Source: Candidatus Omnitrophota bacterium (GTDB lineage: Bacteria > Omnitrophota > Gorgyraeia > Zapsychrales > Fredricksoniimonadaceae). Taken from it: a DNA stretch of 64,000 nt. The notes beneath the pieces were generated by a model, which searched no databases, was not told where the DNA came from, and worked only from the letters and a program-made list of their open reading frames with translations. The stretch lies in the NCBI GenBank assembly GCA_028870995.1, contig JAGWOI010000001.1, forward strand, positions 26,273 to 90,272. The letters are read 5' to 3'. How positions within the stretch are numbered: the first letter of the stretch is position 1; every line of letters begins with the position of its first letter. Of the stretch, positions 1,785-20,095 are shown piece after piece. The position numbers and the translations under genes are program-made.

Positions 1785-2885
1785 ATGTTAAAACTTCTTA
1801 GTTCAGTCCGCATCACCGTCGTTTGCCTGTTCCTGCTTTTTGTCCTTACTTTTTGGGGGACCATGGCCCAGGTGCAGCAGGGGTTGTACGCGGCCCAGGA
1901 GCGTTTTTTTGCCTCCTTTTTCTTTTTGGCCGGAGGGTGGTTTCCTTTCCCGGGCGCTCAGCTGGTGCTTTGGATTTTGTTCATCAATCTGGTGGCCGCC
2001 TTAATCACTCATTTTAAGAAACAGAGCGGCTGGGCCTCCATCGGCGGCAAAATCACCCATATTGGACTTATCCTTTATTTTGCCGCAGCCTTCTTTATTT
2101 TCCATCTTTCCAGGGAATCTTATGTGCATTTGGGAGAAGGCGACAGCACCAATGTTTCCACCTCCTATACGGAATGGGAATTAGCGTATTGGCAGGAGCA
2201 GGGCGCTTCCAGGCAGGTCACCGCACTCGACAGCAAAAATTTTAAACCAGGGGACAGGGTGGCGTTCAATAATCCTGACTTCACGCTGCGCGTGGCGCAA
2301 TATTATCCTAACTCTGATGCCTATGACAACGGCAGCAGTCCCAAACCGGCCGGTATCATCAGCCTTGATGCCATCAGCCATATCGCAGGCAAACCCATGG
2401 ATAAAGAAAGAGAAAAGAATATCGCCGGCGGTGTTTTTGATCTGAGCTTCGGCGGCAAGTCCCTCACCCTGCTGCTTTTTGGGGCCGAGACCAACCCGAC
2501 CCGGGTGGCCATCAATGGAAAAAATTATTATTTTATCCTGCGGCATAAAACATTCCCGCTGCCTTTTGCCTTGAAACTGGACCGTTTTAAAGTTGCATTT
2601 CATCCCGGGACCGATATGGCCAAAAGTTATCAAAGCTGGGTCACCATCACCACCGGCTCTCTCACCCGGCAGGTGCGTATTTATATGAACAATCCGTTGC
2701 GTTATAAAGATTACACCTTGTACCAGGCCTCCTACGATACAGATCCCCAAGGCAGGCAATATTCGACGCTGGCCGTGGTCAAAAATTCGGCCCGGCTGCT
2801 GCCGTATATCTCCTGCCTTTTGGTGTTTTTAGGCTTGGCGTTGCATTTTCTTACTCAGGCTATTATCACGAAATTAAGATTATGA
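1785..2885 (+). CDS. ccsB: Cytochrome c biogenesis protein, system II (ResB/CcsB-like)
   Basis: 366 aa. N-terminal TM helices, a periplasmic loop and a C-terminal TM helix. ITHIGLILYF-type helix as in ResB. Followed by ccsA with a 4-nt overlap. Confidence 0.65.
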   Translation: MLKLLSSVRITVVCLFLLFVLTFWGTMAQVQQGLYAAQERFFASFFFLAGGWFPFPGAQLVLWILFINLVAALITHFKKQSGWASIGGKITHIGLILYFAAAFFIFHLSRESYVHLGEGDSTNVSTSYTEWELAYWQEQGASRQVTALDSKNFKPGDRVAFNNPDFTLRVAQYYPNSDAYDNGSSPKPAGIISLDAISHIAGKPMDKEREKNIAGGVFDLSFGGKSLTLLLFGAETNPTRVAINGKNYYFILRHKTFPLPFALKLDRFKVAFHPGTDMAKSYQSWVTITTGSLTRQVRIYMNNPLRYKDYTLYQASYDTDPQGRQYSTLAVVKNSARLLPYISCLLVFLGLALHFLTQAIITKLRL

Positions 2886-4744
2886 AAACCAGATCCATTT
2901 TTTTAAGTTTAATCGTGTGCCTATGCTTGACGCCCACAGCCATGGCCCAGGAGGGCAAATTTTTAGACCATTTTAAGGGCATTCCGGTGCTGCAGGAAGG
3001 CCGCCTTAAACCCCTGGACACCTATGCGCGCAATCTGTTGATCCAGTTCTCTGGAAAGGACAGTTATGATCACGCCCCGGCAGCTGCTTGGCTCGCCAAA
3101 CTTTTGTTCACGCCGTTCCATGCCGCTGATGACAAGGTGTTCTTGATCAATAATCCCGAAATCGCAACGGCCTTGAACATCAAACCCGAAGCCGGGCGCC
3201 GTTACAGTTTCGCTGAATTAAAAGATGCCTTCCCCAAATTAGTGCAGTTAAAAGAGGAAGCCGCCAATATCGATGAACGCCAGCGCACCCTGGTGGAGAA
3301 TGAGATCATCCGGGTGGCCCAGAACGTGGAGCTTTACATTGATTTCTCCGAGGATTTCCTTTGGGCTTATCCTGACCAGGATTTTACCATCACCTCGCCT
3401 GAAATCAAAAAACAGTTGGGGCTTCCCCAGGACCAGAACCAATTCAGTTTTATTGATATGGCTTTTAATGCCGGTAAAATCAAAGATTTAATGCTGGGGC
3501 TTAAAAATAAATCTAAAGAACAGATTTTAGGGCCGCAACTTGAGTTGATGTCCGCGGTCAACAACATGGTCCATTGGACCAAGGATTATCAAAATTTGCC
3601 TTTTGAGGTGATTCCTCCGGCAGAGGGCAATGACTGGTTAAGCCCGTGGGACGCCATATCAGGTGGACTTTCCGAAGGTCAAAGGAAACTTATTGGGCTT
3701 TGGTATCAAATGGCCCAAGCCTATGCCGCAGGGAATTTCATCGATTTCGACATGGCTGCTCAATCTTATTTAGGGGCGGTGAAAGAAAATCTCAAGCCAA
3801 GACAGTTGAATATCATCCGCAAGTTTCCTCTGGAAATGACCTATGAAGCAGCCAAGCCGTTCTTGTGGGCCAGGATTTTCTATATTCTTGCTTTTATATT
3901 TTTTATCATCTCCTTTACCTCATCTAAAAAGGTCTGGTATGTTTTGGGGCTTTTATCCGTAGTGGCAGGTTTTATCCCGCATACTCTTGGGCTTGTGGCG
4001 CGGATTATCATCATGGCCAGGCCGCCGGTCACCAATCTTTATGAGACCTTTATCTTTGTCGGATTTATCAGCGTACTCCTAGGGCTTGGCATCGAGTATT
4101 TTAACCGGCGCTGGCTGGGCCTCGTTACGGCCGCCATTTGCGGCACCATCCTTTTATTCATTGCCGGGAGGTACAGTGCTGAAGGCGATACCCTCAAGAT
4201 GCTGGTGGCGGTCCTGAATTCCAATTTTTGGCTGGCGACCCATGTCACCACCATCACTATGGGTTATGGCGCCACGTGTGTGGCCGGGATATTGGGTCAC
4301 ATTTGGCTTATCCAGGCGAGCTTGGGCAAGAAGCGAGAGGTCCTGGATAATACGTATAAAACCACCTTGGGGATCATGGGGGTGGCGTTGACTCTGACAT
4401 TTTTAGGGACCAACCTGGGCGGCATCTGGGCCGACCAAAGCTGGGGCCGGTTTTGGGGCTGGGACCCCAAGGAAAATGGGGCCCTGATGATCGTGCTTTG
4501 GCTGGCGATCCTGTTCCATGCCAAGTTTGCCATGATGATCGATGATTTCGGCCTGGCCATCGGGTGTGTGATCAGCATGATGGTGGTCATGTGGGCCTGG
4601 TTCGGGGTGAATTTGCTGAGCATCGGCCTTCATTCTTATGGATTTACTTCGGGGATCGCCAATGCCCTGATCATATACGCCGCCGGAGAAATTGCGTTTA
4701 TCATCCTTACCGCTACATTAGTGATCCGCCGCAGATCTACGTAG
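2882..4744 (+). CDS. ccsA: Cytochrome c-type biogenesis protein CcsA/ResC (haem lyase, WWD domain) with a long N-terminal periplasmic extension
   Basis: 620 aa. Signal peptide, about 330 aa periplasmic region, then a polytopic domain with the tryptophan-rich WWD motif WGRFWGWDPKENGALMIVLWLAILFHAKF. Confidence 0.8.
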   Translation: MKTRSIFLSLIVCLCLTPTAMAQEGKFLDHFKGIPVLQEGRLKPLDTYARNLLIQFSGKDSYDHAPAAAWLAKLLFTPFHAADDKVFLINNPEIATALNIKPEAGRRYSFAELKDAFPKLVQLKEEAANIDERQRTLVENEIIRVAQNVELYIDFSEDFLWAYPDQDFTITSPEIKKQLGLPQDQNQFSFIDMAFNAGKIKDLMLGLKNKSKEQILGPQLELMSAVNNMVHWTKDYQNLPFEVIPPAEGNDWLSPWDAISGGLSEGQRKLIGLWYQMAQAYAAGNFIDFDMAAQSYLGAVKENLKPRQLNIIRKFPLEMTYEAAKPFLWARIFYILAFIFFIISFTSSKKVWYVLGLLSVVAGFIPHTLGLVARIIIMARPPVTNLYETFIFVGFISVLLGLGIEYFNRRWLGLVTAAICGTILLFIAGRYSAEGDTLKMLVAVLNSNFWLATHVTTITMGYGATCVAGILGHIWLIQASLGKKREVLDNTYKTTLGIMGVALTLTFLGTNLGGIWADQSWGRFWGWDPKENGALMIVLWLAILFHAKFAMMIDDFGLAIGCVISMMVVMWAWFGVNLLSIGLHSYGFTSGIANALIIYAAGEIAFIILTATLVIRRRST

Positions 4745-5607: not shown

Positions 5608-6675
5608 ATGCCGATGCCTGGTTCCTTTTTCCAACGATATGCCTTAGAGAAGACACTCAAGGAGTTGGCGGACATTAAGTTCGCCCTTGATGTGTCTTCG
5701 ATCGTGGCCATTACCGATCAAACGGGAAAGATCGTTTACGCCAACGACAAGTTCTGCGAGATTTCCAAGTACTCCCACGAAGAACTGCTCGGCCAGAATC
5801 ACCGCATCATCAATTCCGGTTATCATCCCAAGGAATTTTTCCGTGACCTGTGGCGGACCATCGCCCAAGGCAAGGTATGGACAGGTGAGATCTGCAACCG
5901 CGCCAAGGACGGATCGATTTATTGGGTGGATACCACGATTGTTCCCTTTCTAAACGATAGGGGCAAGCCGTTCCAATATGTTTCCATCCGCAACGAAATA
6001 ACCCAGCGCAAATTGATGGAAGATGAGATCAAGGCGATCCCCCAGCGCATCATCCAGGCCCAGGAGAGCGAAGCTAACCGCATCGCCAGGGACATCCACG
6101 ATGATTTGGGGCAGTCGCTGGCCACCTTAAAAATACTTATCCAATCCGCATGGATGCCGGATGTAAAGAATTTCCCTCAAGAGAAGAAAGACCATGAGAA
6201 GATCATCAACTATTTGAGCAGCATCATTGAAAAATCCCGCAACCTGGCCATGCGGTTGAGGCCTTCAACGCTCGACACCTTAGGGCTGACGACGGCCCTA
6301 AAGCTCATGTTCACCGAGATCAACCGCTCCAAGTCCTTGAAGGTAGAGTTCAGACATAATAAGATCGATCACTTGAAGTATGATTCTGAAGCCATTAATA
6401 TTTACCGTATCGTCCAGGAGGCTATGGGCAATTGTATCAAGCATGCTTCGGCCAGCCTGGTCAAGATTGATCTGCGTCTTGTCAAGGAGCGGTTAAAGAT
6501 CCGGATTACGGACAACGGCAAGGGTTTTGTCGTAACGGGAAAATCCAGCGGTTTGGGGCTGGTCACCATGAAGGAGAGGGTCATTCTTTTAGGGGGGGAC
6601 ATTAAAATCCAATCAGTGCCTAAAAAAGGCACCACTATTTCCATCAACATTCCAGTGAGGGGTAAAAAATCATGA
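5608..6675 (+). CDS. PAS-domain sensor histidine kinase, HisKA_3 (NarX/DegS) type
   Basis: N-terminal PAS fold. H-box IHDDLGQSLATLKI. C-terminal HATPase_c G-boxes (DNGKGF, GLGL). Confidence 0.8.
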   Translation: MPMPGSFFQRYALEKTLKELADIKFALDVSSIVAITDQTGKIVYANDKFCEISKYSHEELLGQNHRIINSGYHPKEFFRDLWRTIAQGKVWTGEICNRAKDGSIYWVDTTIVPFLNDRGKPFQYVSIRNEITQRKLMEDEIKAIPQRIIQAQESEANRIARDIHDDLGQSLATLKILIQSAWMPDVKNFPQEKKDHEKIINYLSSIIEKSRNLAMRLRPSTLDTLGLTTALKLMFTEINRSKSLKVEFRHNKIDHLKYDSEAINIYRIVQEAMGNCIKHASASLVKIDLRLVKERLKIRITDNGKGFVVTGKSSGLGLVTMKERVILLGGDIKIQSVPKKGTTISINIPVRGKKS

Positions 6676-7316
6676 GCGCTATCCGGGTCATATTGGCCGA
6701 TGATCATGCCATGCTGAGGTCAGGCTTAAGGGGTTTATTGGAGAAAAACCCTGATTTTAAAGTCGTCGGGGAAGCCGGCAACGGTGAGGTCCTGCTGGAC
6801 AAATTAAAAAGCACCAAGGTCGATTGCGTTGTTCTGGATCTGTCCATGCCCCTGATGGACGGTCTGGAAACCCTCAAGGAACTGCGCCAGCGCCACCCCA
6901 AGCTCAAGGTCCTGATACTGACCATGCAAAAAGATATCGACCATTTCAAGTACGCCATGGCCCACGGAGCCAACGGCTATGTCCTTAAAGACGGGGCTTT
7001 TGAACAACTGGTCATGGCCATCAAGATGGTCATGAAGGGCAAAAGTTTTGTGTCACCGGCGATTTCCGAATATATAACGGAGCAGTATGTGCGCTCCATC
7101 GAGGCGAGCGACGTTCCCTCCCTGGAAATCCTTACTAACCGCGAGAAACAGGTTCTAGCCCTTATCGTCAAGGGAGCGGCCAACAAAAACATCGCCTCTT
7201 CCTTGAAAATCAGCATCAGGACCGTCGAAACCCACCGTAGCCGCCTCATCCACAAATTGGGCATCAAGACCGCTGCCGGCCTGGTCAAATACGCCATGGC
7301 CAAGGGTCTGATTTGA
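6672..7316 (+). CDS. NarL/FixJ-family response regulator (receiver + LuxR HTH)
   Basis: RVILADDH...LDLSMP receiver motifs. C-terminal LuxR-type HTH (LTNREKQVLALIVKGAANKNIASSLKISIRTVETHR). ATGA overlap with the kinase gene. Confidence 0.85.
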   Translation: MSAIRVILADDHAMLRSGLRGLLEKNPDFKVVGEAGNGEVLLDKLKSTKVDCVVLDLSMPLMDGLETLKELRQRHPKLKVLILTMQKDIDHFKYAMAHGANGYVLKDGAFEQLVMAIKMVMKGKSFVSPAISEYITEQYVRSIEASDVPSLEILTNREKQVLALIVKGAANKNIASSLKISIRTVETHRSRLIHKLGIKTAAGLVKYAMAKGLI

Positions 7317-7436
7317 CCCCTCCGTCCTTCCTTAAGTGTTACTACGTACGGCCTTAAGTAGTTCACCCCATTCATATTTTCTCCTTTTGAGATTATCCTG
7401 TAAGTAGTTGAAGTGCCGTCTAAAAGGGTAGGATTT

Positions 7437-7814
7437 ATGACCGCTATATTGATCGTGGAAGACCATAAGGAATTCCGCGAGGCCATCAAAAAATTCATCA
7501 TCATGAAAGGCGTCAAGGCCGATATCCTGGAAGCCATGACCGCGGAGGAGGCCATGGGTATCGCCTCCTCCCATCGCCCCAAGGTCGTCATCATCGACAT
7601 CCATTTAACCAAAGGTGTCAGCGGCCTGGAGCTGGCTTCATCCATAAAGGCCAAAGACCCGTCCTGCAGCATCATCCTGTTGACCATGTATACCAACCAG
7701 GACATGAAACATCTGTGCAAGACCAAGGACGTGGAAGACTTTATCGATAAAAGCGACCTGGATGTCCGCCTGGTGCCGGCGATCAACCGTCTTTTAGCCC
7801 TGGAGAGGGCATAG
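7437..7814 (+). CDS. Stand-alone CheY-like receiver domain protein
   Basis: ILIVEDH...VVIIDIHL receiver signature with no output domain. Start taken at ATG 7437, which has an upstream AGGG. The overlapping 297-aa minus-strand ORF 6977..7870 is judged spurious. Confidence 0.65.
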   Translation: MTAILIVEDHKEFREAIKKFIIMKGVKADILEAMTAEEAMGIASSHRPKVVIIDIHLTKGVSGLELASSIKAKDPSCSIILLTMYTNQDMKHLCKTKDVEDFIDKSDLDVRLVPAINRLLALERA

Positions 7815-7829
7815 AGATTTCCCCAAAAA

Positions 7830-8837
7830 ATGAAGCTGGCAAGCTTGCATAACAAGATCCTTTTCAGCATGGTATCTTTGCTGCTGTTGCTGGGCTTTTT
7901 TATATGGCTGGTGACCCAAACTTTTTTGTTATCGCTTAAGACCAGCGTTTTCCAGTCGCTGCATTCGCTGCATTTGCTGATGCTGACGACGACCTTGGGG
8001 TTTGCCTTGCTCGGGATATTCCTGGCCTTTTACCTGTCGGGTCTCATCACCAAACCACTTTCACAGCTGGTCCAGGGGATAGAGGCGATCAAGAAGGGGG
8101 ATTTCTCAGGAAGGATCGATATCCGGACCGAAGACGAGATCGGGGTTCTGGCCGGTGCTTTCAATGAAATGAGTGACCGTTTGAACCTGCTTATCAGCGA
8201 GGTGACGGCCCTTGCCAAGTTCCGCGAGAGGGAGAAGATAGCCCTGGATTTCCATGACGGCTGCGCCCAGGACCTGGTCAGTCTTTTAAAAAGAATTGAA
8301 TTGTGTGAAAAACTGGTTGAGGCCAGATCTCCGGAGGCGCTGGTGGAATTGGGACTTTTGAGGGACTATACCAAGAATATTTTGACCTCCACCCGGAACA
8401 TGATCTGTGATTTGAAATCGAAGGAAGATTTCGAAGTGCCGTTGGTGGAGAAAATCAGCGGTTTCCTGAAGGATTATGAAAGGATCAATGGTTGTAAAGT
8501 CGCTTTCAACGCTTCGGGGCCGGTGACGGCCCTTTCATCGGACCAAAATGAACATTTATTTTATATCATCACGGAGGCCTTGAGCAATATAAGGAAACAC
8601 AGCAGGGCGCAAAAAGTGACGGTAAATATTAAATCCAGTTTGCAACACCTTGAAGTTACGGTGAAGGACAATGGCAAGGGTTTTGATGTGGCCGCAGAAA
8701 ATGCGGATGATCCCCATCGCAGGAAATTCGGCCTGATGGCGATGCGCCATAGGGCCCAGGCGATAGGCGCGCGGTTAAACATCCAGTCGACCATCGGCCG
8801 GGGAAGCGAAGTGGGCTTGGAGCTAGGAGTTAAATAA
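7830..8837 (+). CDS. Membrane sensor histidine kinase (HAMP + HisKA_3 + HATPase_c)
   Basis: Two N-terminal TM helices, a HAMP-like linker, H-box LDFHDGCAQDLVSL and the DNGKGF G-box. Confidence 0.8.
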   Translation: MKLASLHNKILFSMVSLLLLLGFFIWLVTQTFLLSLKTSVFQSLHSLHLLMLTTTLGFALLGIFLAFYLSGLITKPLSQLVQGIEAIKKGDFSGRIDIRTEDEIGVLAGAFNEMSDRLNLLISEVTALAKFREREKIALDFHDGCAQDLVSLLKRIELCEKLVEARSPEALVELGLLRDYTKNILTSTRNMICDLKSKEDFEVPLVEKISGFLKDYERINGCKVAFNASGPVTALSSDQNEHLFYIITEALSNIRKHSRAQKVTVNIKSSLQHLEVTVKDNGKGFDVAAENADDPHRRKFGLMAMRHRAQAIGARLNIQSTIGRGSEVGLELGVK

Positions 8838-9493
8838 TGTCACAAGTACGTGTCTTTTTATGCGATGACCACACCTTGTTCCGTCAAGGTGTCAAGAAGC
8901 TGCTGGATTTGGAAAAGGACATTAAGGTGGTGGGAGAAGCCGGCGATGCCTATCAAATGTTTGAGGCATTAAGGTCACTTGCCGTGGATATTGTACTTTT
9001 GGATATCAATATGCCCAAAATGGACGGGGTGAAGGCCACCTTCAGGATAAGGAAGGAACACCCGCATGTGGCGGTGGTCATTTTGACGGTCCATGAGGAT
9101 GAGCCTTATATTTTTCAGGCGATCAAGGCAGGTGCCATGGGGTATCTCCTTAAGGATGTGTCCATCAAGGAGTTGGCCGAAGCCGTGCGCAAGGTGTCTG
9201 AAGGGGAAGCCCTCCTTCAGCCGATCATTGCTTCAAAGGTTCTAAAAGAATTCGTGATGCTGGATAAAAGGAAGGCCAGGGAAGGCCAAAAGTCTGGCAG
9301 TAATTTAACGGCACGGGAAGAGGAAATCCTGAGGTTTATTGCCATGGGCGATTCAAACAAGGAGATTGCGCAAAAAATCGGGATTACCGAGAAGACCGTC
9401 AAAAACCATGTCAGCAATATCCTTACCTGTCTTCACGTGAACAACCGCACCCAGGCCGCCCTTTATGCTTTGGGTAAAACTCCGGCAACCTGA
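8837..9493 (+). CDS. NarL/FixJ-family response regulator (receiver + LuxR HTH)
   Basis: VFLCDDHTLFRQG...LLDINMP receiver. LuxR HTH LTAREEEILRFIAMGDSNKEIAQKIGITEKTVKNH. Confidence 0.85.
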   Translation: MSQVRVFLCDDHTLFRQGVKKLLDLEKDIKVVGEAGDAYQMFEALRSLAVDIVLLDINMPKMDGVKATFRIRKEHPHVAVVILTVHEDEPYIFQAIKAGAMGYLLKDVSIKELAEAVRKVSEGEALLQPIIASKVLKEFVMLDKRKAREGQKSGSNLTAREEEILRFIAMGDSNKEIAQKIGITEKTVKNHVSNILTCLHVNNRTQAALYALGKTPAT

Positions 9494-9764: not shown

Positions 9765-10811
9765 ATGAACATCCTGGCGGTTGGAATCAATCATAAGACC
9801 TCGTCTATAGATATTAGGGAAAGGTTCTTTTTACAGCCTCTTGAGCGGGAATTGCTTGTAAACGAGCTGCTAAAGGACCCGCGCATCATTGAGGCTTTTG
9901 TCCTGTCAACCTGCAACCGGACGGAAATTTATGCCAATGCGATCGAGGACCAGCCGCAGCTGCTGATGAAGGCGTTGTTTAAAATCAAGAAGGTTCCCTT
10001 AAGTGCCGATCTGGCCGGTCATTTTTATACCCTGTCATCCCGCCAGGCCATTGACCACCTGTTGCGGGTGACCACGGGGTTGGATTCTCTGGTGGTGGGT
10101 GAAAAACAGATTTTAGGCCAGGTTAAGGAGGCTTTTGAATTCTCCAGAAGCAAAGGCGCATTGAGCAAAACTTTTAATGTTCTTTCCAATCTGGTGGTGC
10201 AGACCGGCAAAAAAGCCCGACATGAGACGCAGATCGATTTTGGCGGTTCATCGGTCAGCTGGGCGTCGGTCATGATGGCGCAGGATATTCTGGGTTCATT
10301 GCAGGACAAAGCTGTCTTGATTTTGGGCTCAGGCAAAATGGGCCGCTTGGCTGTGGAGCAGCTGGCTAAAAAGGGTGTGGCCAAGATCTATATCATGAAT
10401 AGGACGATCGAAAAAGCCCAGGAATTGGCCCGCGAAAGCGGCGGGATAGCCGTGGGCATTTGGGACATCAAGGAAATCCTGCAGCAGGTCGATGCCTGCA
10501 TCTGCTCGGCCAGCTGCACGCACCATTTAATAGAGAAGGACCTGGTGGAAGCCGCCATGGCCGCCCGGCCGTCCCGTCCCTTGGTATGCATCGATATCTC
10601 CATGCCCCGCAATATTGCGCCTGAGGTGGCGGAAGTGGGGAATGTACGCCTGGCGACGGTGGATGACTTGGACAGGATCGTGGAGAGCAATATGCAAAAG
10701 CGGATGTCGGCCGTCGCCCTGGTGGAAGGTCTGATCGACCGGAAGATCGATGAATTCTACAAAACTATGGAGAAGATTACCCTAATCAAGGAGGAATTAT
10801 GGAAAGCTTAA
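9765..10811 (+). CDS. hemA: Glutamyl-tRNA reductase
   Basis: MNILAVGINHKTSSIDIRERF...STCNRTEIY, with the conserved catalytic Cys in TCNR, and an NADP-binding GSGKMG Rossmann motif. Confidence 0.9.
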   Translation: MNILAVGINHKTSSIDIRERFFLQPLERELLVNELLKDPRIIEAFVLSTCNRTEIYANAIEDQPQLLMKALFKIKKVPLSADLAGHFYTLSSRQAIDHLLRVTTGLDSLVVGEKQILGQVKEAFEFSRSKGALSKTFNVLSNLVVQTGKKARHETQIDFGGSSVSWASVMMAQDILGSLQDKAVLILGSGKMGRLAVEQLAKKGVAKIYIMNRTIEKAQELARESGGIAVGIWDIKEILQQVDACICSASCTHHLIEKDLVEAAMAARPSRPLVCIDISMPRNIAPEVAEVGNVRLATVDDLDRIVESNMQKRMSAVALVEGLIDRKIDEFYKTMEKITLIKEELWKA

Positions 10812-11124: not shown

Positions 11125-11892
11125 ATGATCGGACAGAAAAAGTCACTGGTTGTATTCTTGGCGGCACTTGGGTTGTTTTGGGTAACAGGACTATCTTTAT
11201 CCCAAGCGGACCAGAACAAGGTCAATGAGATGTTGTATTTAAAGAAAGCCAAGTATGTAGGTATGGACACCTGCGCAATGTGCCATGAGAAGGAGGTAAA
11301 GGAATACAAGCTCTCAACGCACGCGCGTATCCATATCAAGAACGATACCACCGGTGCCGAGGATTGCGAGGTCTGTCACGGCCCGGGCAGCGTCCATGTG
11401 GATGCTTCCGGCGGTAAAGGTAATATCATCAATCCTTCCAAGGATCCGGAAATATGTTTTAACTGCCATACAGATAAAAAGATGCAATTCCGCCTGCCTT
11501 ATCATCATCCAGTTCTGGAAGGCAAGATGAGCTGCACGGATTGCCACAATCCCCACGGGATCGATGTCCGTCCCTGGACCGCCACTTCTGAGAACGGTAT
11601 CAATGAGGTGTGTTTCAAGTGCCATACGGACAAACGCGGTCCTTATATCTGGCAGCATGATGCTTTGAAAGACGGCTGTACGTCATGCCATCAGGTGCAT
11701 GGTTCGGTTAATGACAAAATGCTGATCGCGAGAGACTATAACCTGTGTTTGCGCTGCCATGCCATGAATAATTTCCCCTATGGCCATGGCCAGAACGGCC
11801 AATACCATGATTTTGTTTATGGGACTTGCTGGAGCGCAGGATGCCATTCAGAACCTCACGGGTCTAATTTTGATCATTATTTTCGTTATTAA
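11125..11892 (+). CDS. Periplasmic multihaem c-type cytochrome with 7 CxxCH motifs plus one CX4CH
   Basis: Signal peptide. Motifs CAMCH, CEVCH, CFNCH, CTDCH, CFKCH, CTSCH, CLRCH and CWSAGCH within 255 aa. The size and haem density resemble periplasmic partners of porin-cytochrome conduits. Confidence 0.8.
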   Translation: MIGQKKSLVVFLAALGLFWVTGLSLSQADQNKVNEMLYLKKAKYVGMDTCAMCHEKEVKEYKLSTHARIHIKNDTTGAEDCEVCHGPGSVHVDASGGKGNIINPSKDPEICFNCHTDKKMQFRLPYHHPVLEGKMSCTDCHNPHGIDVRPWTATSENGINEVCFKCHTDKRGPYIWQHDALKDGCTSCHQVHGSVNDKMLIARDYNLCLRCHAMNNFPYGHGQNGQYHDFVYGTCWSAGCHSEPHGSNFDHYFRY

Positions 11893-14082: not shown

Positions 14083-15582
14083 ATGAGCTCAAAACCAGCC
14101 AAACAACGGTTCGACGACAGTTTTTATAACAACATCACCTATATCGGTGTAGTCTTATCGTTGTTTGTGCTGGTTTGCGAGCTCTTTTTGTTCGCCATTG
14201 ATTTTGCCTCTCCGCGGCCCAGCGTTTATCTGGGGCTGATCACGTATTGTTTTCTGCCGCCGCTTTTGATCCTCGGGCTTATCTTAATCCCGACAGGCGC
14301 CCTTCTTAAGCGAAAACACATTCTTCATTCAGGAAAACCGCGGCCGATCCTGATTGATCTTTCCCTGGCGACCCATCAAAATGCCGTGGTGATTTTCATG
14401 ATCGGCACGGTGCTGCTCTTGGTCATGACTGCCATCGGTTCCTACAAGGCTTTCAATTACACGGAATCGACCGGGTTTTGCGGGTTGACCTGCCATCAGA
14501 TCATGAAACCCGAATATACGACACATAGCCATTCCCCCCATGAGCGGGTCAGGTGTGTTGAGTGCCATGTCGGATCAGGAGCGGATTGGTACCTGCGTTA
14601 TAAGATGGCCGGGACCAAGATGGTGGTCAAAACTTTCGACGGCAGGTATCATCGTCCCACCCCGGCGCCTCTCCAGAACCTGCGTCCGGCCAAGGAGATC
14701 TGTGAACAGTGTCATTGGCCGGGTAAATTGTTCAGCGCGGTATTGCTCAATAAGGTTTATTATGCCGATGATCCGACCCAGACCCCGCCATGGAAGATCA
14801 ACCTGCTGATGCGTGTCGGTGCCGGCAAGGTCGGTGGTGCGGGGGTTCACGCCCACATGTATTTTAGCAATGAGATTTTTTACGTGGCTGATGATGCTAA
14901 GCGGCAGAATATCACCTGGGTCAAGACGATCGACAAGGCTGGCAAGGTTACCATCTACACGACCAAGGATTCACCTTATAAAAAAGTCAACCCGCCACAG
15001 GACAAGGTCCGCCGGATGGATTGCATTGACTGCCATAACCGCGCCACGCACCGTTTCGAGGCGCCGGATGTACTCATGAACCGCGCCTTGGCCCAAGGCG
15101 CTATCAGCTCTTCCATTCCCATGATCAAGTCCGAAGGCGTTGAAGTACTGGGCAAGACCTATAGCTCCACTGCCGCCGCGGAAAAACAGATCCGCGAGGG
15201 CTTGATGGATTATTACAGTAAGAAGCAGCCTGGCTATTTCGCCGGCCACCAGGCCGCTGTCGAGAATGCCATTGCCGAGATCATCCGTTTGTACCGCAAG
15301 AATTTCTTTCCGGAAATGAAATCCCGCTGGGACGCCTATCCGGACAACATCGGGCACATGATTTCGTTGGGCTGTTTCCGGTGCCATGACAATGAGCACA
15401 AGTCCGCGGGCGGCCGGGTGATTTCTCGGAAATGCACCCTTTGCCATGTCATCGTGGAACAGGGCAGCGGCACCTCGACCGAGAAGAATCTGGAGGGGCT
15501 GGAATTTAAGCATCCTTTCAACGATCCCGGTGATGACTCATGGAAGACGGCCAATTGCTCAGACTGCCATACCGGAAGTTAG
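14083..15582 (+). CDS. Membrane-anchored heptahaem c-type cytochrome (NapC/NirT-related, ImcH-like architecture)
   Basis: Three N-terminal hydrophobic helices, then CGLTCH (CX3CH), CVECH, CEQCH, CIDCH, CFRCH, CTLCH and CSDCH. Confidence 0.7.
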   Translation: MSSKPAKQRFDDSFYNNITYIGVVLSLFVLVCELFLFAIDFASPRPSVYLGLITYCFLPPLLILGLILIPTGALLKRKHILHSGKPRPILIDLSLATHQNAVVIFMIGTVLLLVMTAIGSYKAFNYTESTGFCGLTCHQIMKPEYTTHSHSPHERVRCVECHVGSGADWYLRYKMAGTKMVVKTFDGRYHRPTPAPLQNLRPAKEICEQCHWPGKLFSAVLLNKVYYADDPTQTPPWKINLLMRVGAGKVGGAGVHAHMYFSNEIFYVADDAKRQNITWVKTIDKAGKVTIYTTKDSPYKKVNPPQDKVRRMDCIDCHNRATHRFEAPDVLMNRALAQGAISSSIPMIKSEGVEVLGKTYSSTAAAEKQIREGLMDYYSKKQPGYFAGHQAAVENAIAEIIRLYRKNFFPEMKSRWDAYPDNIGHMISLGCFRCHDNEHKSAGGRVISRKCTLCHVIVEQGSGTSTEKNLEGLEFKHPFNDPGDDSWKTANCSDCHTGS

Positions 15583-17177
15583 GTCCGGGGGCCTTTTTTT
15601 TATTGTTCCTGACGGCCTTCCCGGCACTGGCCCAGCAGCCGTCCACGGGATCCGTTAAGTTTACCAATCAGGACTGCCTGAGCTGTCATGCCGACGGAGC
15701 CCCCATCGTTGACCAGAAAATTTTTGGCCATTCCGTCCACGGGAAGCTTAATTGCACGGATTGCCACCGTAGCATCACCGACCTTCCACATGCGGAAAAA
15801 CTCCCGAAGGTCGATTGTGCGGTTTGCCATAAGAAGGAGGCCGTGCTTTGGCAGCACAGCGGCCATGCCCAGGCCCTTGGCAACGGTGCCCTGAAAGCTC
15901 CTTCTTGTGAATTTTGTCACGGGACGCATGGTATCACGAAGGCAACTGACAGGCAGTCCCGGTTGTATTGGGCTAATATCCCAGCCATTTGCGGCCAATG
16001 CCACTTCCAAGAGTATAAGGAATACCGTCGAGGTATTCATGGACAGGCCCTGGCCTCCGGCAGCAGGGATGCTCCCGTGTGCACCGATTGCCATGGGGAG
16101 CACGATATCGCTGCTGTTAAGGGAGGAGCTTCCTGGGTTTCCGCGGCCCGTATTCCTCAAACCTGCGGGCAATGCCACTCGGCGGAACGTATCAACAGCA
16201 AGTACAATCTGGCCTCGAACGTTTTAGGAAGCTACATGCAAAGCTATCATGGTCTTGCCATGCAGCAGGGGACCATGACCGCTGCCAACTGCGCTTCCTG
16301 CCATGGGGCGCATGAGATCCTTCCTTCGTCGGACCCGCGCTCCACCATCAATCCCAAGAATTTGGAAAAAACCTGCGGCCGGTGCCATCCCGGCATTGGC
16401 GCCCGGGTGGCCAGCGCCAAAATTCATGAAAGTTTTCAGCCGGGCAATAACCCCCTTAACGATTGGGTAAGCCGTTTTTATATCTTCTTTATCATTTTTG
16501 TCTCAGGTATCCTTTTGCTGCACAATGTCCTGGATTTCTCCAAAAAAGCCCGGGCCCATTACCGGAATTCCATGGGAAAAGGAGCCGAGTATATGGGTTT
16601 TAACGAGCGCTGCCAGCATTTTATCCTGGCCATGACCTTTATCCTTCTGGCGTACACTGGATTTTCCATCAAATTTCCCCAAACTTGGTGGTCATTCATG
16701 TTTTTTGGACACACCGATTGGCTGCGTTGGGGGCACCGCAGTGTTGCCGTCGTCTTTTGCTTGCTGGGCGCCTACCATTTTACCTATTTGTTTTTTACCC
16801 CCAAGGGCCGGTGGCAACTCAAGGCGTTGAGCGTCAGGAAGACGGACTTTGTCCAGTTTTGGCAGAGCTTTCAATATTATTTTGGCCGGCGGGAAGATAA
16901 GCCGCGCAGCAGCGGCATTTACAGTTATGTGCAAAAGCTGGAGTATTGGGCCCTGTTGTGGGGAGGCATGGTGATGGTGCTGACCGGTGCGCTCATGTTC
17001 AACGAAGTCTGGTTTTTCAGCTTATTTCCCAAATGGCTGTATGACGTGGTTAGGACGGTTCACCTGTACGAGGCCATCCTGGCCTGCGTGACCATTGTCA
17101 TCTGGCACGGTTATTTTGTTATTTTCGATCCTGAGATTTACCCCGGCAAAGGGTCATGGCTTCATGGACGGGAGTAG
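15540..17177 (+). CDS. Nonahaem c-type cytochrome fused to a dihaem b-type cytochrome membrane domain (CbcL-like quinol oxidoreductase)
   Basis: Signal peptide. Nine CxxCH motifs (CLSCH, CTDCH, CAVCH, CEFCH, CGQCH, CTDCH, CGQCH, CASCH, CGRCH). A C-terminal domain of about 240 aa with five TM helices carrying conserved His residues, of the HydC/FdnI (Ni/Fe-hydrogenase b-type cytochrome) type. Confidence 0.75.
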   Translation: MEDGQLLRLPYRKLGPGAFFLLFLTAFPALAQQPSTGSVKFTNQDCLSCHADGAPIVDQKIFGHSVHGKLNCTDCHRSITDLPHAEKLPKVDCAVCHKKEAVLWQHSGHAQALGNGALKAPSCEFCHGTHGITKATDRQSRLYWANIPAICGQCHFQEYKEYRRGIHGQALASGSRDAPVCTDCHGEHDIAAVKGGASWVSAARIPQTCGQCHSAERINSKYNLASNVLGSYMQSYHGLAMQQGTMTAANCASCHGAHEILPSSDPRSTINPKNLEKTCGRCHPGIGARVASAKIHESFQPGNNPLNDWVSRFYIFFIIFVSGILLLHNVLDFSKKARAHYRNSMGKGAEYMGFNERCQHFILAMTFILLAYTGFSIKFPQTWWSFMFFGHTDWLRWGHRSVAVVFCLLGAYHFTYLFFTPKGRWQLKALSVRKTDFVQFWQSFQYYFGRREDKPRSSGIYSYVQKLEYWALLWGGMVMVLTGALMFNEVWFFSLFPKWLYDVVRTVHLYEAILACVTIVIWHGYFVIFDPEIYPGKGSWLHGRE

Positions 17178-17179
17178 GT

Positions 17180-19957
17180 ATGCTGGCCGCAATTTTGAAT
17201 ATTATTGTTCTTTTATTTCTGTCAGGAATGCCGGTCTGTGCCCAGACAGCGGGCTCTAACCCGGCCGCCCCCGCCAAGGCCGCGACCGGCAATGATGATT
17301 GCCTGGCCTGCCACGCCGATGCCAGTCAGGCGCCGTTTGTTGATCAGGATAAATTTAAGGCTTCGGTGCATGGCAGGCAGTTGTGCACGGATTGCCACAT
17401 CGATTTAATCGGGAGTGATTTTCCCCATAAAACACCTTTGCCGGTCGATTGCGGCCGCTGCCATGCCGGACAAAAGGCTTTGTTTGCCGCCAGTATCCAC
17501 GGCCAGGCCCTGGCCCATGGGGACAAACTGGCGCCACGGTGCGTTAACTGCCATGGAAATCATTATATCCTTCCGGTTAAGAGCAGAAATTCTCAGGTAG
17601 CGCCGCTGAACATTCCTTTTGTCTGCGGTTCCTGCCATAGCGAGGGCAAGCCGGTTTCAGAGCAGCGGCAGATCCCCGAACATCATATCCTGGAAAATTA
17701 TTCCGAGAGCATGCACGGTGAAGCCCTTCTTAAAAAGGGTTTGAGCGTCACCGCCACCTGCGCCTCCTGCCACCGGGCCCACGAGATCCTGCCTCCCGCG
17801 GACCCGCGTTCTTCCATCGCCCGCGGCAATATCGTCAAGACCTGCTTGCAATGCCACAGCCAGATCGAGAAGGTGCACCGTAAGATCATCAAAGGCGAGT
17901 TGTGGGAAAAAAGCCCGCAGAGCATTCCGGTCTGTGTGGACTGCCATCAGCCTCATAAGATACGCAAGGTTTATTATGCAGCCGGGGAGGCCGACAAGGA
18001 TTGTTTGACCTGTCACGGCAAGAAGGATATTGTTTCTTCCAAGGATCACCGTTCGCTTTATGTCGATGAGAACCAGCTCAGTAATTCCATCCATGCCAAG
18101 GTGGCCTGCGCCCAGTGCCATGCCCAGGTTTCAGTTTCTCATGCAAGGCCTTGCGAAACCATCACCAAAAAAGTGGATTGCTCGATCTGCCATAGCCAGC
18201 AGGTCGAACTTTACCAGCAGGGGATCCATGGCAAATTGTTCAATGCCGGCAATCCCAATGCGCCTTCGTGTGCGGAGTGTCACGGCACCCACGGCATCCT
18301 GTCGCATAAAAATATTAATGCGCCCACCTATCCGACCCATATTCCCGGTCTTTGCGGCCGCTGCCACCGCGAGGGCAAGCAGGCCGCCGTGCTCTACAAA
18401 GGGACCGAACATAATATTCCTAAAAATTATGTGGAAAGCATTCATGGCAAGGGCCTGCTGCAAAGCGGGCTGGTGGTGACCGCGACCTGCGTCAGCTGCC
18501 ATACGGCCCACAAGCAGCTTCCTGCCTCTGATCCCGGCTCCACGGTGAACCGCAACAATATCGCATTGACTTGTTCAGCCTGCCACCAGGGCGTCTATGA
18601 GCAATACGTCAAGAGCGTGCATGCCGTGGACGGCGGCAAGAATTCCGGCAAGCTGCCCGTGTGTAATGACTGTCACACGGCACATACCATCAAAAGGACG
18701 GACCAGAACGCCTTTAAATTCGGGATCATGAACACCTGCGGTAAGTGCCATCGGGCCATTGCCGAGACGTACTTCCAGACGGTGCATGGGAAAATTTCCA
18801 AGTTGGGCTACACGAAGGCCGCCAAATGCCAGGATTGTCACGGTTCCCACCAGATTTACCGGGTGACCGATCCGCGCTCAACGTTGAGCCGTCAGAACAT
18901 CGTGCATACCTGCCGGCAATGCCATCAAGGCGCCACCCGACGTTTTGCCGGTTACCTGACCCATGCCACCCACCATGACCCCAAGAAATACCCTTGGATA
19001 TTCTGGACCTTCTGGTGCATGACCGCCTTGCTGGTGGGCACTTTCAGTGTCAGCCTGTTGCACACCTTGTTGTGGCTGCCCAAATCTCTGGAAATGCGAA
19101 GGCTTTATCCGCAAAAGCACATTGTTTCCAAGGAAAAGCAGTATGTGCGTTTCCCGGTGTTCTACCGCATCCTGCACATCATCATGATCATCAGTTTTAT
19201 GACGCTGACCACCACCGGCATGACACTGAAATTTTCTTATGCACATTGGGCGCAGTTTGTTTCAAGGGTCCTGGGCGGTTTCGCGGTCACCGGTTTTCTG
19301 CACCGCTGCGCGGCGGTGGCGTTGTTGGGCATTTTTGCGGCCCATATCTGGCAGGTGTTCAATCAAAAACGTACCGAAAACAAGAGCCTGAAGCAAATTC
19401 TTTTCGGTCCTGACAGCATTCTCTTTGCCAGGAAGGATTGGCGTGAATTTTTGGCCACCGTAAAGTGGTATGCCGGCAAAGGTCCGTACCCGCAATACGG
19501 CAAGTGGACCTACTGGGAAAAATTTGATTATTTTGCCGTTCTGTGGGGGATCATGGTCATAGGCACCTCGGGGCTGATGCTGTGGTTTCCCGAGGGCTTC
19601 ACCCATTTCCTGCCGGGATGGGTCATCAATGTCGCCACCATCATTCATAGCGACGAAGCCTTGCTGGCCGCGGGTTTTATTTTTACCGTGCATTTCTTCA
19701 ACACCCATTTCAGGCCGGAGAAATTCCCCATGGACACGGTGATCTTCACCGGGCGTATGTCCGTCGAGGACCTGAAGCGCGAGCGGCCCAAGGAATACGA
19801 GGCCCTGATGGCCAACGGAGAGCTTGAAAAGAACCTGGCCGAGCCGCTGTCACCGGCAAGGATCCTGGCCATCCGCATCTTCGGCTGGACCGCGCTTTCC
19901 ATCGGATTGGTGCTGGTTATGTGCATCATCTACACCATGATCTTCGGTTACAGGTAA
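17180..19957 (+). CDS. 19-haem c-type cytochrome fused to a dihaem b-type cytochrome membrane domain (extended CbcL-like protein)
   Basis: Start placed at ATG 17180, which follows a GGGAG motif. The ORF-track start at 17156 overlaps the upstream stop. 19 CxxCH motifs counted from CLACH to CRQCH. C-terminal 5-TM His-containing b-type domain from about 18983. Confidence 0.75.
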   Translation: MLAAILNIIVLLFLSGMPVCAQTAGSNPAAPAKAATGNDDCLACHADASQAPFVDQDKFKASVHGRQLCTDCHIDLIGSDFPHKTPLPVDCGRCHAGQKALFAASIHGQALAHGDKLAPRCVNCHGNHYILPVKSRNSQVAPLNIPFVCGSCHSEGKPVSEQRQIPEHHILENYSESMHGEALLKKGLSVTATCASCHRAHEILPPADPRSSIARGNIVKTCLQCHSQIEKVHRKIIKGELWEKSPQSIPVCVDCHQPHKIRKVYYAAGEADKDCLTCHGKKDIVSSKDHRSLYVDENQLSNSIHAKVACAQCHAQVSVSHARPCETITKKVDCSICHSQQVELYQQGIHGKLFNAGNPNAPSCAECHGTHGILSHKNINAPTYPTHIPGLCGRCHREGKQAAVLYKGTEHNIPKNYVESIHGKGLLQSGLVVTATCVSCHTAHKQLPASDPGSTVNRNNIALTCSACHQGVYEQYVKSVHAVDGGKNSGKLPVCNDCHTAHTIKRTDQNAFKFGIMNTCGKCHRAIAETYFQTVHGKISKLGYTKAAKCQDCHGSHQIYRVTDPRSTLSRQNIVHTCRQCHQGATRRFAGYLTHATHHDPKKYPWIFWTFWCMTALLVGTFSVSLLHTLLWLPKSLEMRRLYPQKHIVSKEKQYVRFPVFYRILHIIMIISFMTLTTTGMTLKFSYAHWAQFVSRVLGGFAVTGFLHRCAAVALLGIFAAHIWQVFNQKRTENKSLKQILFGPDSILFARKDWREFLATVKWYAGKGPYPQYGKWTYWEKFDYFAVLWGIMVIGTSGLMLWFPEGFTHFLPGWVINVATIIHSDEALLAAGFIFTVHFFNTHFRPEKFPMDTVIFTGRMSVEDLKRERPKEYEALMANGELEKNLAEPLSPARILAIRIFGWTALSIGLVLVMCIIYTMIFGYR

Positions 19958-20095
19958 GCCCCTACGTAGTTTTGTACGTAGTAGTACTGATTTACCAGGG
20001 CAGGGAGAGGGATTAAGATTAACCACAATATGTAGTGGTAGTTCCTTCTCCTGTTATCAACAGGTAGTGTTTTAAAAACGAAAGGAGAAAGGGTC

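Follow-up and report, generated by a model that had tools for sequence, protein, structure and literature searches.

The 64-kb window analyzed here (64,000 nucleotides of Candidatus Omnitrophota bacterium, assembly GCA_028870995.1, contig JAGWOI010000001.1, positions 26,273 to 90,272) encodes a protein of 925 amino acids (aa) in which a periplasmic domain with 19 c-type haem motifs is fused to a membrane domain of six helices. We conclude that this long bc-cytochrome is probably an inner-membrane quinol:cytochrome c oxidoreductase of the CbcL family that carries a long periplasmic haem wire. We observed its architecture, fold, conserved ligands, family membership, internal duplication and gene context directly, and describe them in turn below.

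Haem domain

We counted exactly 19 CxxCH motifs, located between residues 49 and 586 (residue numbers of this protein count from the in-frame ATG at position 17156, which gives a 933-aa frame). This is the number reported in an earlier note on the same DNA and is far above chance, because 5000 residue shuffles of the protein contained a mean of 0.12 motifs and a maximum of 3. Across 40 aligned full-length homologues, 19/19 motifs were invariant, and 19 additional periplasmic His residues were likewise invariant. No periplasmic Met was invariant among these homologues, M525 being kept in 92.5% of them. Because of these extra His residues and the lack of an invariant Met, the pattern of ligand conservation fits bis-His coordination of every predicted haem. 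The nine haems of CbcL were measured as bis-His (PMC9129911).

The spacing of the motifs was periodic at 243 residues, and comparison of the protein with itself resolved the haem domain into two similar eight-haem modules followed by a membrane-proximal tail of three haems (Table 1). This tail resembled the haem triplets within modules 1 and 2 (E-values of 4e-16 and 1e-15, respectively). At the DNA level, the remnants of the repeat, located 729 nucleotides (nt) apart, were only 62–74% identical. The comparisons thus identify the haem domain as an internal duplication of an eight-haem module, and the low DNA identity that is left shows that the event is old and would not mislead an assembler. 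The earlier note had described a duplicated 9- to 10-haem module; the duplication itself was recovered, but its unit consists of eight haems in 243 residues, with the three-haem tail added after the second copy.

Segments of the haem domain also matched TIGR03508, the MtrA/DmsE model, with an E-value of 7e-22, the score of 78.1 bits not reaching the cut-off of 192.2. When the whole protein was searched against the PDB with phmmer, weak matches to the haem modules were the only ones found, including 6r2q chain A with an E-value of 2e-6. The table that links structures to sequences names this chain 'Cystathionine beta-synthase', which looks like a labelling slip; we take the published chain A of 6r2q to be MtrA, and a match to the haem domain fits this identity. 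By analogy with the MtrA/DmsE modules, a linear haem wire is plausible.

Membrane domain

An AlphaFold2 model built on a 40-sequence alignment contained six helices in the membrane domain (residues 613–650, 668–692, 709–741, 786–810, 821–851 and 900–931), five of which were shown by a hydropathy scan; five was also the number of transmembrane helices given in the earlier note. The sole significant Foldseek match of the model in the PDB was FdnI (1kqf_C, E-value of 8.9e-5, TM-score of 0.74 on the target), the gamma subunit of formate dehydrogenase-N from E. coli. The His residues at positions 636, 674, 716, 730, 831, 846 and 851 were invariant among the 40 homologues. In an hhalign alignment of the b-domain profile with FdnI, whose sequence was numbered in agreement with the published ligands, three residues (H674, H716 and H831) coincided with haem ligands of FdnI (H18, H57 and H155, respectively), H846 fell onto H164, and H851 fell onto H169, the fourth FdnI ligand. 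We prefer H846 as the putative fourth haem ligand, because a short paralogue encoded upstream shares the distance of 15 residues that separates it from H831. The same alignment placed the invariant WTYWEK loop (784–789) against the FdnI loop YNAGQK, part of the quinone site of FdnI.

The long protein therefore has one candidate His in each of helices 1–3 (H636, H674 and H716) and two in helix 5 (H831 and H846). CbcL was described with one His in each of helices 1–3 and two in helix 5 (Joshi et al., 10.1101/2021.04.15.440034). Together with the Foldseek match to FdnI, this five-His pattern agrees with the HydC/FdnI-type b domain with conserved His residues that the earlier note had proposed. 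With respect to PF01292, the match was real and was found in 12/12 b domains of the family (best E-value of 8e-11), but the long protein by itself scored under the cut-off (see Discussion). We accordingly classify the membrane domain, on sequence and model, as an FdnI/HydC (PF01292)-type domain that is predicted to hold two b haems. A search with the b domain alone returned 374 cluster representatives with E <= 1e-30 among 1.84 billion. Among the 150 matches listed, the proteins hosting the six-helix domain ranged from about 170 to 1126 aa, and therefore one membrane module carries haem chains of many lengths.

Gene and distribution

The gene occupies a single unbroken open reading frame (ORF) at 17156..19957 on the + strand. 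The ATG at 17180, which was also the start given in the earlier note, appears likelier than that at 17156, because it is preceded by a GGGAG Shine-Dalgarno sequence and yields the 925-aa protein of NCBI. This product is identical to MDE2027365.1 and MDE2221484.1, found on two contigs and titled 'hypothetical protein KGK03_00240 [Candidatus Omnitrophica bacterium]'. In our word-index search, the exact protein was clustered at 90% identity under a representative that is a 46-aa fragment, and for this reason the search returned no match of 100%. Among the matches listed, it returned at least 120 homologues of about 880–990 aa with 56–81% identity, spanning Omnitrophica, Elusimicrobia, Acidobacteria, Latescibacteria and Bacteroidota.

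We also scanned one genome per species and obtained at least 586 stretches encoding relatives; the locus counts given in this study refer to the best 80 of these. These 80 were near-full-length with 49–65% identity and came from Omnitrophota, Bacteroidota/Ignavibacteria, Acidobacteriota, Gemmatimonadota, Eisenbacteria, Zixibacteria, Planctomycetota, Myxococcota, Woeseiaceae, Krumholzibacteria, Calditrichota, KSB1 and others. Exactly 19 motifs were present at 66 of the 80 loci, and two more had 19 motifs in a split gene; further loci had 21 (six loci), 20 (two loci) or 18 motifs (three loci). The variants with 21 motifs (L038, L040, L043, L057, L059 and L064) belong to Thermoanaerobaculia, Acidobacteriota and Zixibacteria, and those with 18 and 20 motifs to other groups. 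At L010 and L011, the c and b parts of the long type are separate adjacent ORFs, and the same was observed for the short type at L044, L063, L074, L076 and L084. Such separate ORFs, which are arranged like CbcA/CbcB, may be either true split genes or frameshifts.

The earlier note had named a frameshift or a misassembly joining two genes as one outcome that would overturn its description, and had suggested a search for homologues of the same length. The separate ORFs at L010 and L011 are real examples of split forms or frameshifts, and beyond this no support for such an artefact was found. The identical protein on two contigs, the near-full-length homologues and the 19 motifs at most species loci all speak against it, as do the conservation of the junction between modules in the 40-homologue alignment and the absence of near-identical DNA repeats from the gene. 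With full-length homologues in at least 80 species genomes, we rejected this explanation as far as sequence comparison allows, giving it a negligible probability, and the comparisons identify the long bc-cytochrome as a real gene.

Relationship to known systems

CbcL/MtrH/MtoC homologues have been surveyed in 15 phyla, and ranged from 3 to 23 motifs and from 416 to 1034 aa, mostly with six membrane helices (Zhong & Shi 2018, PMC6295460). Table S2 of that survey lists many entries of 906–952 aa with 19–20 motifs and the same spacing as in the window protein; for example, it includes Omnitrophica A3C47_05160 (OGW82754.1, which is match P0026 of our search and shares 67% identity with the window protein), Caldithrix abyssi Cabys_319 (WP_006928296.1), Marinifilaceae SPP2 BAX79136.1, Solibacteraceae SbA3 and Ignavibacteria GWF2_33_9 (PMC6295460). 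These homologues likewise have six helices and show no architectural difference; they are orthologues. Beyond this table, the literature searched contained no named 19-haem bc-cytochrome and no paper devoted to the long clade, and no description of such a protein was found in papers on Caldithrix, Desulfuromonadia or bioanodes. The novelty that the earlier note implied is thus not borne out. Homology places the window protein in a catalogued family, as part of a functionally uncharacterized clade, and it is not a new invention.

The features by which the CbcL/MtrH/MtoC family is recognized (Zacharoff 2016; Zhong & Shi 2018), namely a multi-CxxCH N-terminus, six helices, a HydC/FdnI-type domain, five His residues and homology, were all found in the long protein. 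CbcL in the strict sense has nine c haems, and the long protein has 19 motifs. The strict sense also implies a requirement for reducing acceptors below about –0.1 V. We compared the long protein with Geobacter CbcL, GSU0274, in haem number, length, helix layout and His pattern. In each, an N-terminal c domain with several bis-His haems, which are predicted for the long protein, precedes a b domain of the HydC/FdnI type with six helices and about 330 aa, and the two share the His pattern described above. GSU0274 has 619 aa, with six helices spanning 285–611 (Table S2, PMC6295460), and the helix positions of the long protein match. The two proteins differ in the number of c haems (19 compared with 9) and in length (925 compared with 619 aa), with about 30 residues per haem in the window protein and 28 in CbcL, and CbcL has a potential-dependent role that was shown genetically.

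MtoC and MtrH of Fe(II)-oxidizing and Fe(III)-reducing Betaproteobacteria belong to the same family, have the six-helix b domain and are accompanied by porin-cytochrome neighbours of the MtrAB/MtoAB type, but have 9 haems and about 655–675 aa. FdnI (1KQF chain C) shares the four-helix core, the four His-ligand positions and the aligned cytoplasmic-side loop; in contrast, the long protein has two extra helices and a fused c-haem chain in place of an iron-sulphur subunit. The decahaem cytochromes MtrA/DmsE resemble the long protein only in its haem-module segments (TIGR03508 and 6r2q chain A). However, the long protein is membrane-anchored and is presumably not inserted into a porin, and its TIGR03508 score lies far under the cut-off.

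The upstream short paralogue

The gene upstream of the long bc-cytochrome encodes a short paralogue with 9 CxxCH motifs and a PF01292 match of 52.9 bits. Its membrane helices number just five, and it stops directly after the FdnI-like core. The earlier note had called it the canonical nine-haem version; the haem number agrees, but the six-helix domain of Geobacter CbcL has its counterpart in the long protein. Between the two window proteins, the b domains were 27% identical. We constructed a neighbour-joining, midpoint-rooted tree of b domains from the fetched loci (81 of the long type and 36 of the short type), in which the two types were reciprocally monophyletic. The median b-domain identity was 59% within the long type and 30% when long and short types were compared, and both types co-occur across many phyla. 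Because of this reciprocal monophyly, these identities and this co-occurrence, the long and short genes are ancient paralogues, and the 19-haem state had been fixed before the family spread. The tree and the identities led us to reject a recent tandem copy of the upstream gene, and with it the tandem duplication followed by internal expansion that the earlier note had envisaged.

The short type (9–17 haems, with a mode of 11) was present at 33 of the 80 loci and adjacent at 25; when only loci with >5 kb on both flanks were considered, it was present at 22 of 44. In P0020, a protein of 1566 aa, a short type (11 haems and five helices) is followed by a long type (19 haems and six helices) in a single ORF. 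This fusion was found in three sources (Logan, ENA and NCBI) on different contigs of 7, 15 and 63 kb, all of one lineage. In P0020, the signal peptide of the long type acts as the connecting membrane helix. As a Rosetta-stone sign, the fusion and the pairing hint at a joint function.

It is accordingly conceivable that the long (19-haem) and short (9–17-haem) bc-cytochromes form an obligate heteromer. The occurrence of the short paralogue at many loci in many phyla and the natural fusion in P0020, in which the membrane topology is consistent, favour this possibility. However, about half of the well-flanked loci have no short paralogue nearby, and gene order and orientation vary, some long/short pairs being divergent. 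The alternative oxidases of Geobacter act independently at different potentials (10.1101/2022.08.31.506072; 10.1101/2021.04.15.440034), and therefore the co-location could reflect co-regulation alone. We consider such a heteromer unlikely.

Gene cluster

As shown in Table 1, every c-type cytochrome gene of the window falls within 10.7–20 kb, in a cluster headed by hemA of which the long bc-cytochrome is the last gene. Terminator-like hairpins are located 3΄ of this gene at 20022–20064. A scan for promoters and terminators gave 12 promoter-like sites compared with 11.5 expected, which is uninformative.

The eight-haem periplasmic cytochrome is presumed to be an analogue of MtrA/PioA. For the barrel protein encoded next to it, the best PDB match of the model was MtrB (6r2q_B, E-value of 2.7e-10, TM-score of 0.57/0.62), whereas TonB-dependent receptors reached about 0.36. 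The word-index search found 39 homologues only of this protein, and all those with a named source were from Omnitrophica. The ImcH-like gene was found near the long protein at 20 of the 80 species loci. One cluster thus encodes three putative quinol oxidases (ImcH-like, short and long). The gene order is conserved in two related metagenome-assembled genomes of Omnitrophota, whose short paralogue has 11 haems, and a gene of 89–92 aa was called at the position of the monohaem cytochrome in L001 and L002. In L004, from Bacteroidota (14434–17397), a long/short/ImcH trio is followed by genes for a Rieske protein, cytochrome b and several more multihaem cytochromes, and these downstream partners differ from the Omnitrophota cluster.

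Immediately upstream of the cluster, at 1785–4744 and 5608–9493, are ResB-like/CcsA-like genes for System II cytochrome c maturation and two pairs of a PAS histidine kinase and a LuxR regulator. The maturation genes, the regulators and hemA form a 'cytochrome island'. Downstream of the cluster are nrdD and nrdG, and the genomic context is therefore that of an anaerobe.

Table 1. Coordinates of the cytochrome cluster and of the parts of the long bc-cytochrome in the window
Feature	Position	Strand	Remarks
hemA (glutamyl-tRNA reductase), head of the cluster	9765..10811	+	Also adjoins the Elusimicrobia cluster L006
Secreted monohaem cytochrome c (CIDCH), 92 aa	10799..11077	+	13-nt overlap with the end of hemA
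Eight-haem periplasmic cytochrome, 7 CxxCH and CWSAGCH	11125..11892	+	Directly 5΄ of the porin gene
MtrB-like outer-membrane beta-barrel, 720 aa	11908..14070	+	No Pfam or NCBIfam match; all-beta model
ImcH-like cytochrome, three N-terminal helices, then one CX3CH and six CxxCH	14083..15582	+	Layout as in Geobacter ImcH, GSU3259
Short paralogue, 9 c-haems and five-helix PF01292 b domain	15540..17177	+	NCBI MDE2221483.1, called from 15555
Coding sequence of the 19-haem bc-cytochrome	17180..19957	+	925 aa; in-frame ATG at 17156 gives 933 aa
Signal peptide MLAAILNIIVLLFLSGMPVCA, followed by QT	17180..17242	+	From hydropathy and sequence; predicted cleavage site
Eight-haem module 1, haems 1–8	17279..17971	+	Residues 42–272; 38% identity to module 2, E-value 7e-57
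Eight-haem module 2, haems 9–16	17981..18700	+	Residues 276–515; offset of 243 residues (729 nt) from module 1
Three-haem tail, haems 17–19, membrane-proximal	18701..18973	+	Residues 516–606
Six-helix membrane domain	18974..19954	+	Residues 607–933; FdnI-like four-helix core at about 665–852 (19148..19711)

Discussion

What we infer, as distinct from the features observed directly, is that haems and quinone are bound, which way electrons flow, which proteins are the partners and how far the wire reaches. Two b haems would be held in the FdnI-like four-helix core of the six-helix domain, and quinol would be oxidized at the quinone site on the cytoplasmic side of this core. Electrons would then traverse the membrane via the two b haems and pass to the 19 covalently attached periplasmic c haems, arranged as 8 + 8 + 3 with bis-His ligands. 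From there, the chain would deliver them toward periplasmic or outer-membrane partners; in other words, the protein would act as a membrane-anchored wire leading toward an outer-membrane conduit. In this way, the cluster may couple the menaquinone pool to extracellular acceptors or donors. For CbcL, the release of protons on the cytoplasmic side has been argued to give a low-yield path (10.1101/2022.08.31.506072), and by the same argument the pathway proposed here would be of low yield.

Several observations weigh against this interpretation. With regard to the membrane domain, the model had a mean predicted local distance difference test (pLDDT) score of 73.6, which is moderate confidence. 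The long protein scored 23.1 bits as a whole and 25.7 bits for the domain against PF01292, and thus did not reach the gathering score of 30.1, and its score against TIGR01583 was 31 bits compared with a cut-off of 116. The b-domain profile had no match among PDB sequences, and the hhalign comparison with FdnI (E-value of 1.8e-4) had a probability of just 48%. With regard to the gene context, no gene for an extracellular cytochrome was found within the cluster, and the link to extracellular electron transfer comes from the window cluster and its close relatives: at well-flanked loci, ImcH or the porin is rarer than the short paralogue, which is itself missing nearby from about half of them. In addition, no functional study of the 19-haem clade was found in the literature searched.

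Electrons might also flow in the opposite direction. In this MtoC-like uptake, they would pass from the porin-cytochrome module to the 19 haems and the b haems, and quinone would be reduced at the cytoplasmic face. The outer-membrane module consists of a porin and a periplasmic cytochrome without an MtrC-like surface cytochrome, as in the MtoAB/PioAB systems of Fe(II) oxidizers. Furthermore, the survey found no sequence feature that separates quinol-oxidizing from quinone-reducing members (PMC6295460), and the FdnI fold natively reduces quinone (10.1101/2022.08.31.506072). However, the survey recorded ImcH homologues, one of which the cluster encodes, from Fe(III) reducers only (PMC6295460), the anaerobic context given by nrdDG does not suit uptake, and no terminal oxidase or other electron sink was seen in the window. 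We therefore regard uptake as improbable and favour quinol oxidation with export of electrons through the haem chain.

In MtrA, 10 haems extend over about 8 nm. By analogy, a chain of 19 haems might span about 15–19 nm, enough to cross most of the periplasm, and dock directly on the MtrAB-like module, perhaps after assembly with the short paralogue into a heteromer, to form a continuous, shuttle-free wire from quinone to the cell surface. This extension of the model is speculative, and we rate it below either of the two alternatives of heteromer formation and electron uptake. If it is true, the strict conservation of 19 haems across many phyla would be a length constraint that depends on how wide the periplasm is.

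It is the quinol oxidases of the inner membrane that fix how much energy extracellular respiration yields and over which redox window it works. To our knowledge, they have been studied only in their Geobacter and Shewanella versions. Judged on the window alone, the long bc-cytochrome is an unsurprising addition to a family already catalogued; its interest rests on the strict conservation of 19 haems, on the pairing and fusion with the short paralogue, and on the complete electron-conduit cluster in Omnitrophota. The long form, mostly with exactly 19 haems, occurs widely among uncultured Omnitrophota, Acidobacteriota, Gemmatimonadota, Ignavibacteria, Zixibacteria and others, and could mark mineral electron exchange in these phyla. 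It would also be a good protein in which to ask whether a wire anchored in the membrane can take over from soluble shuttles of the periplasm.

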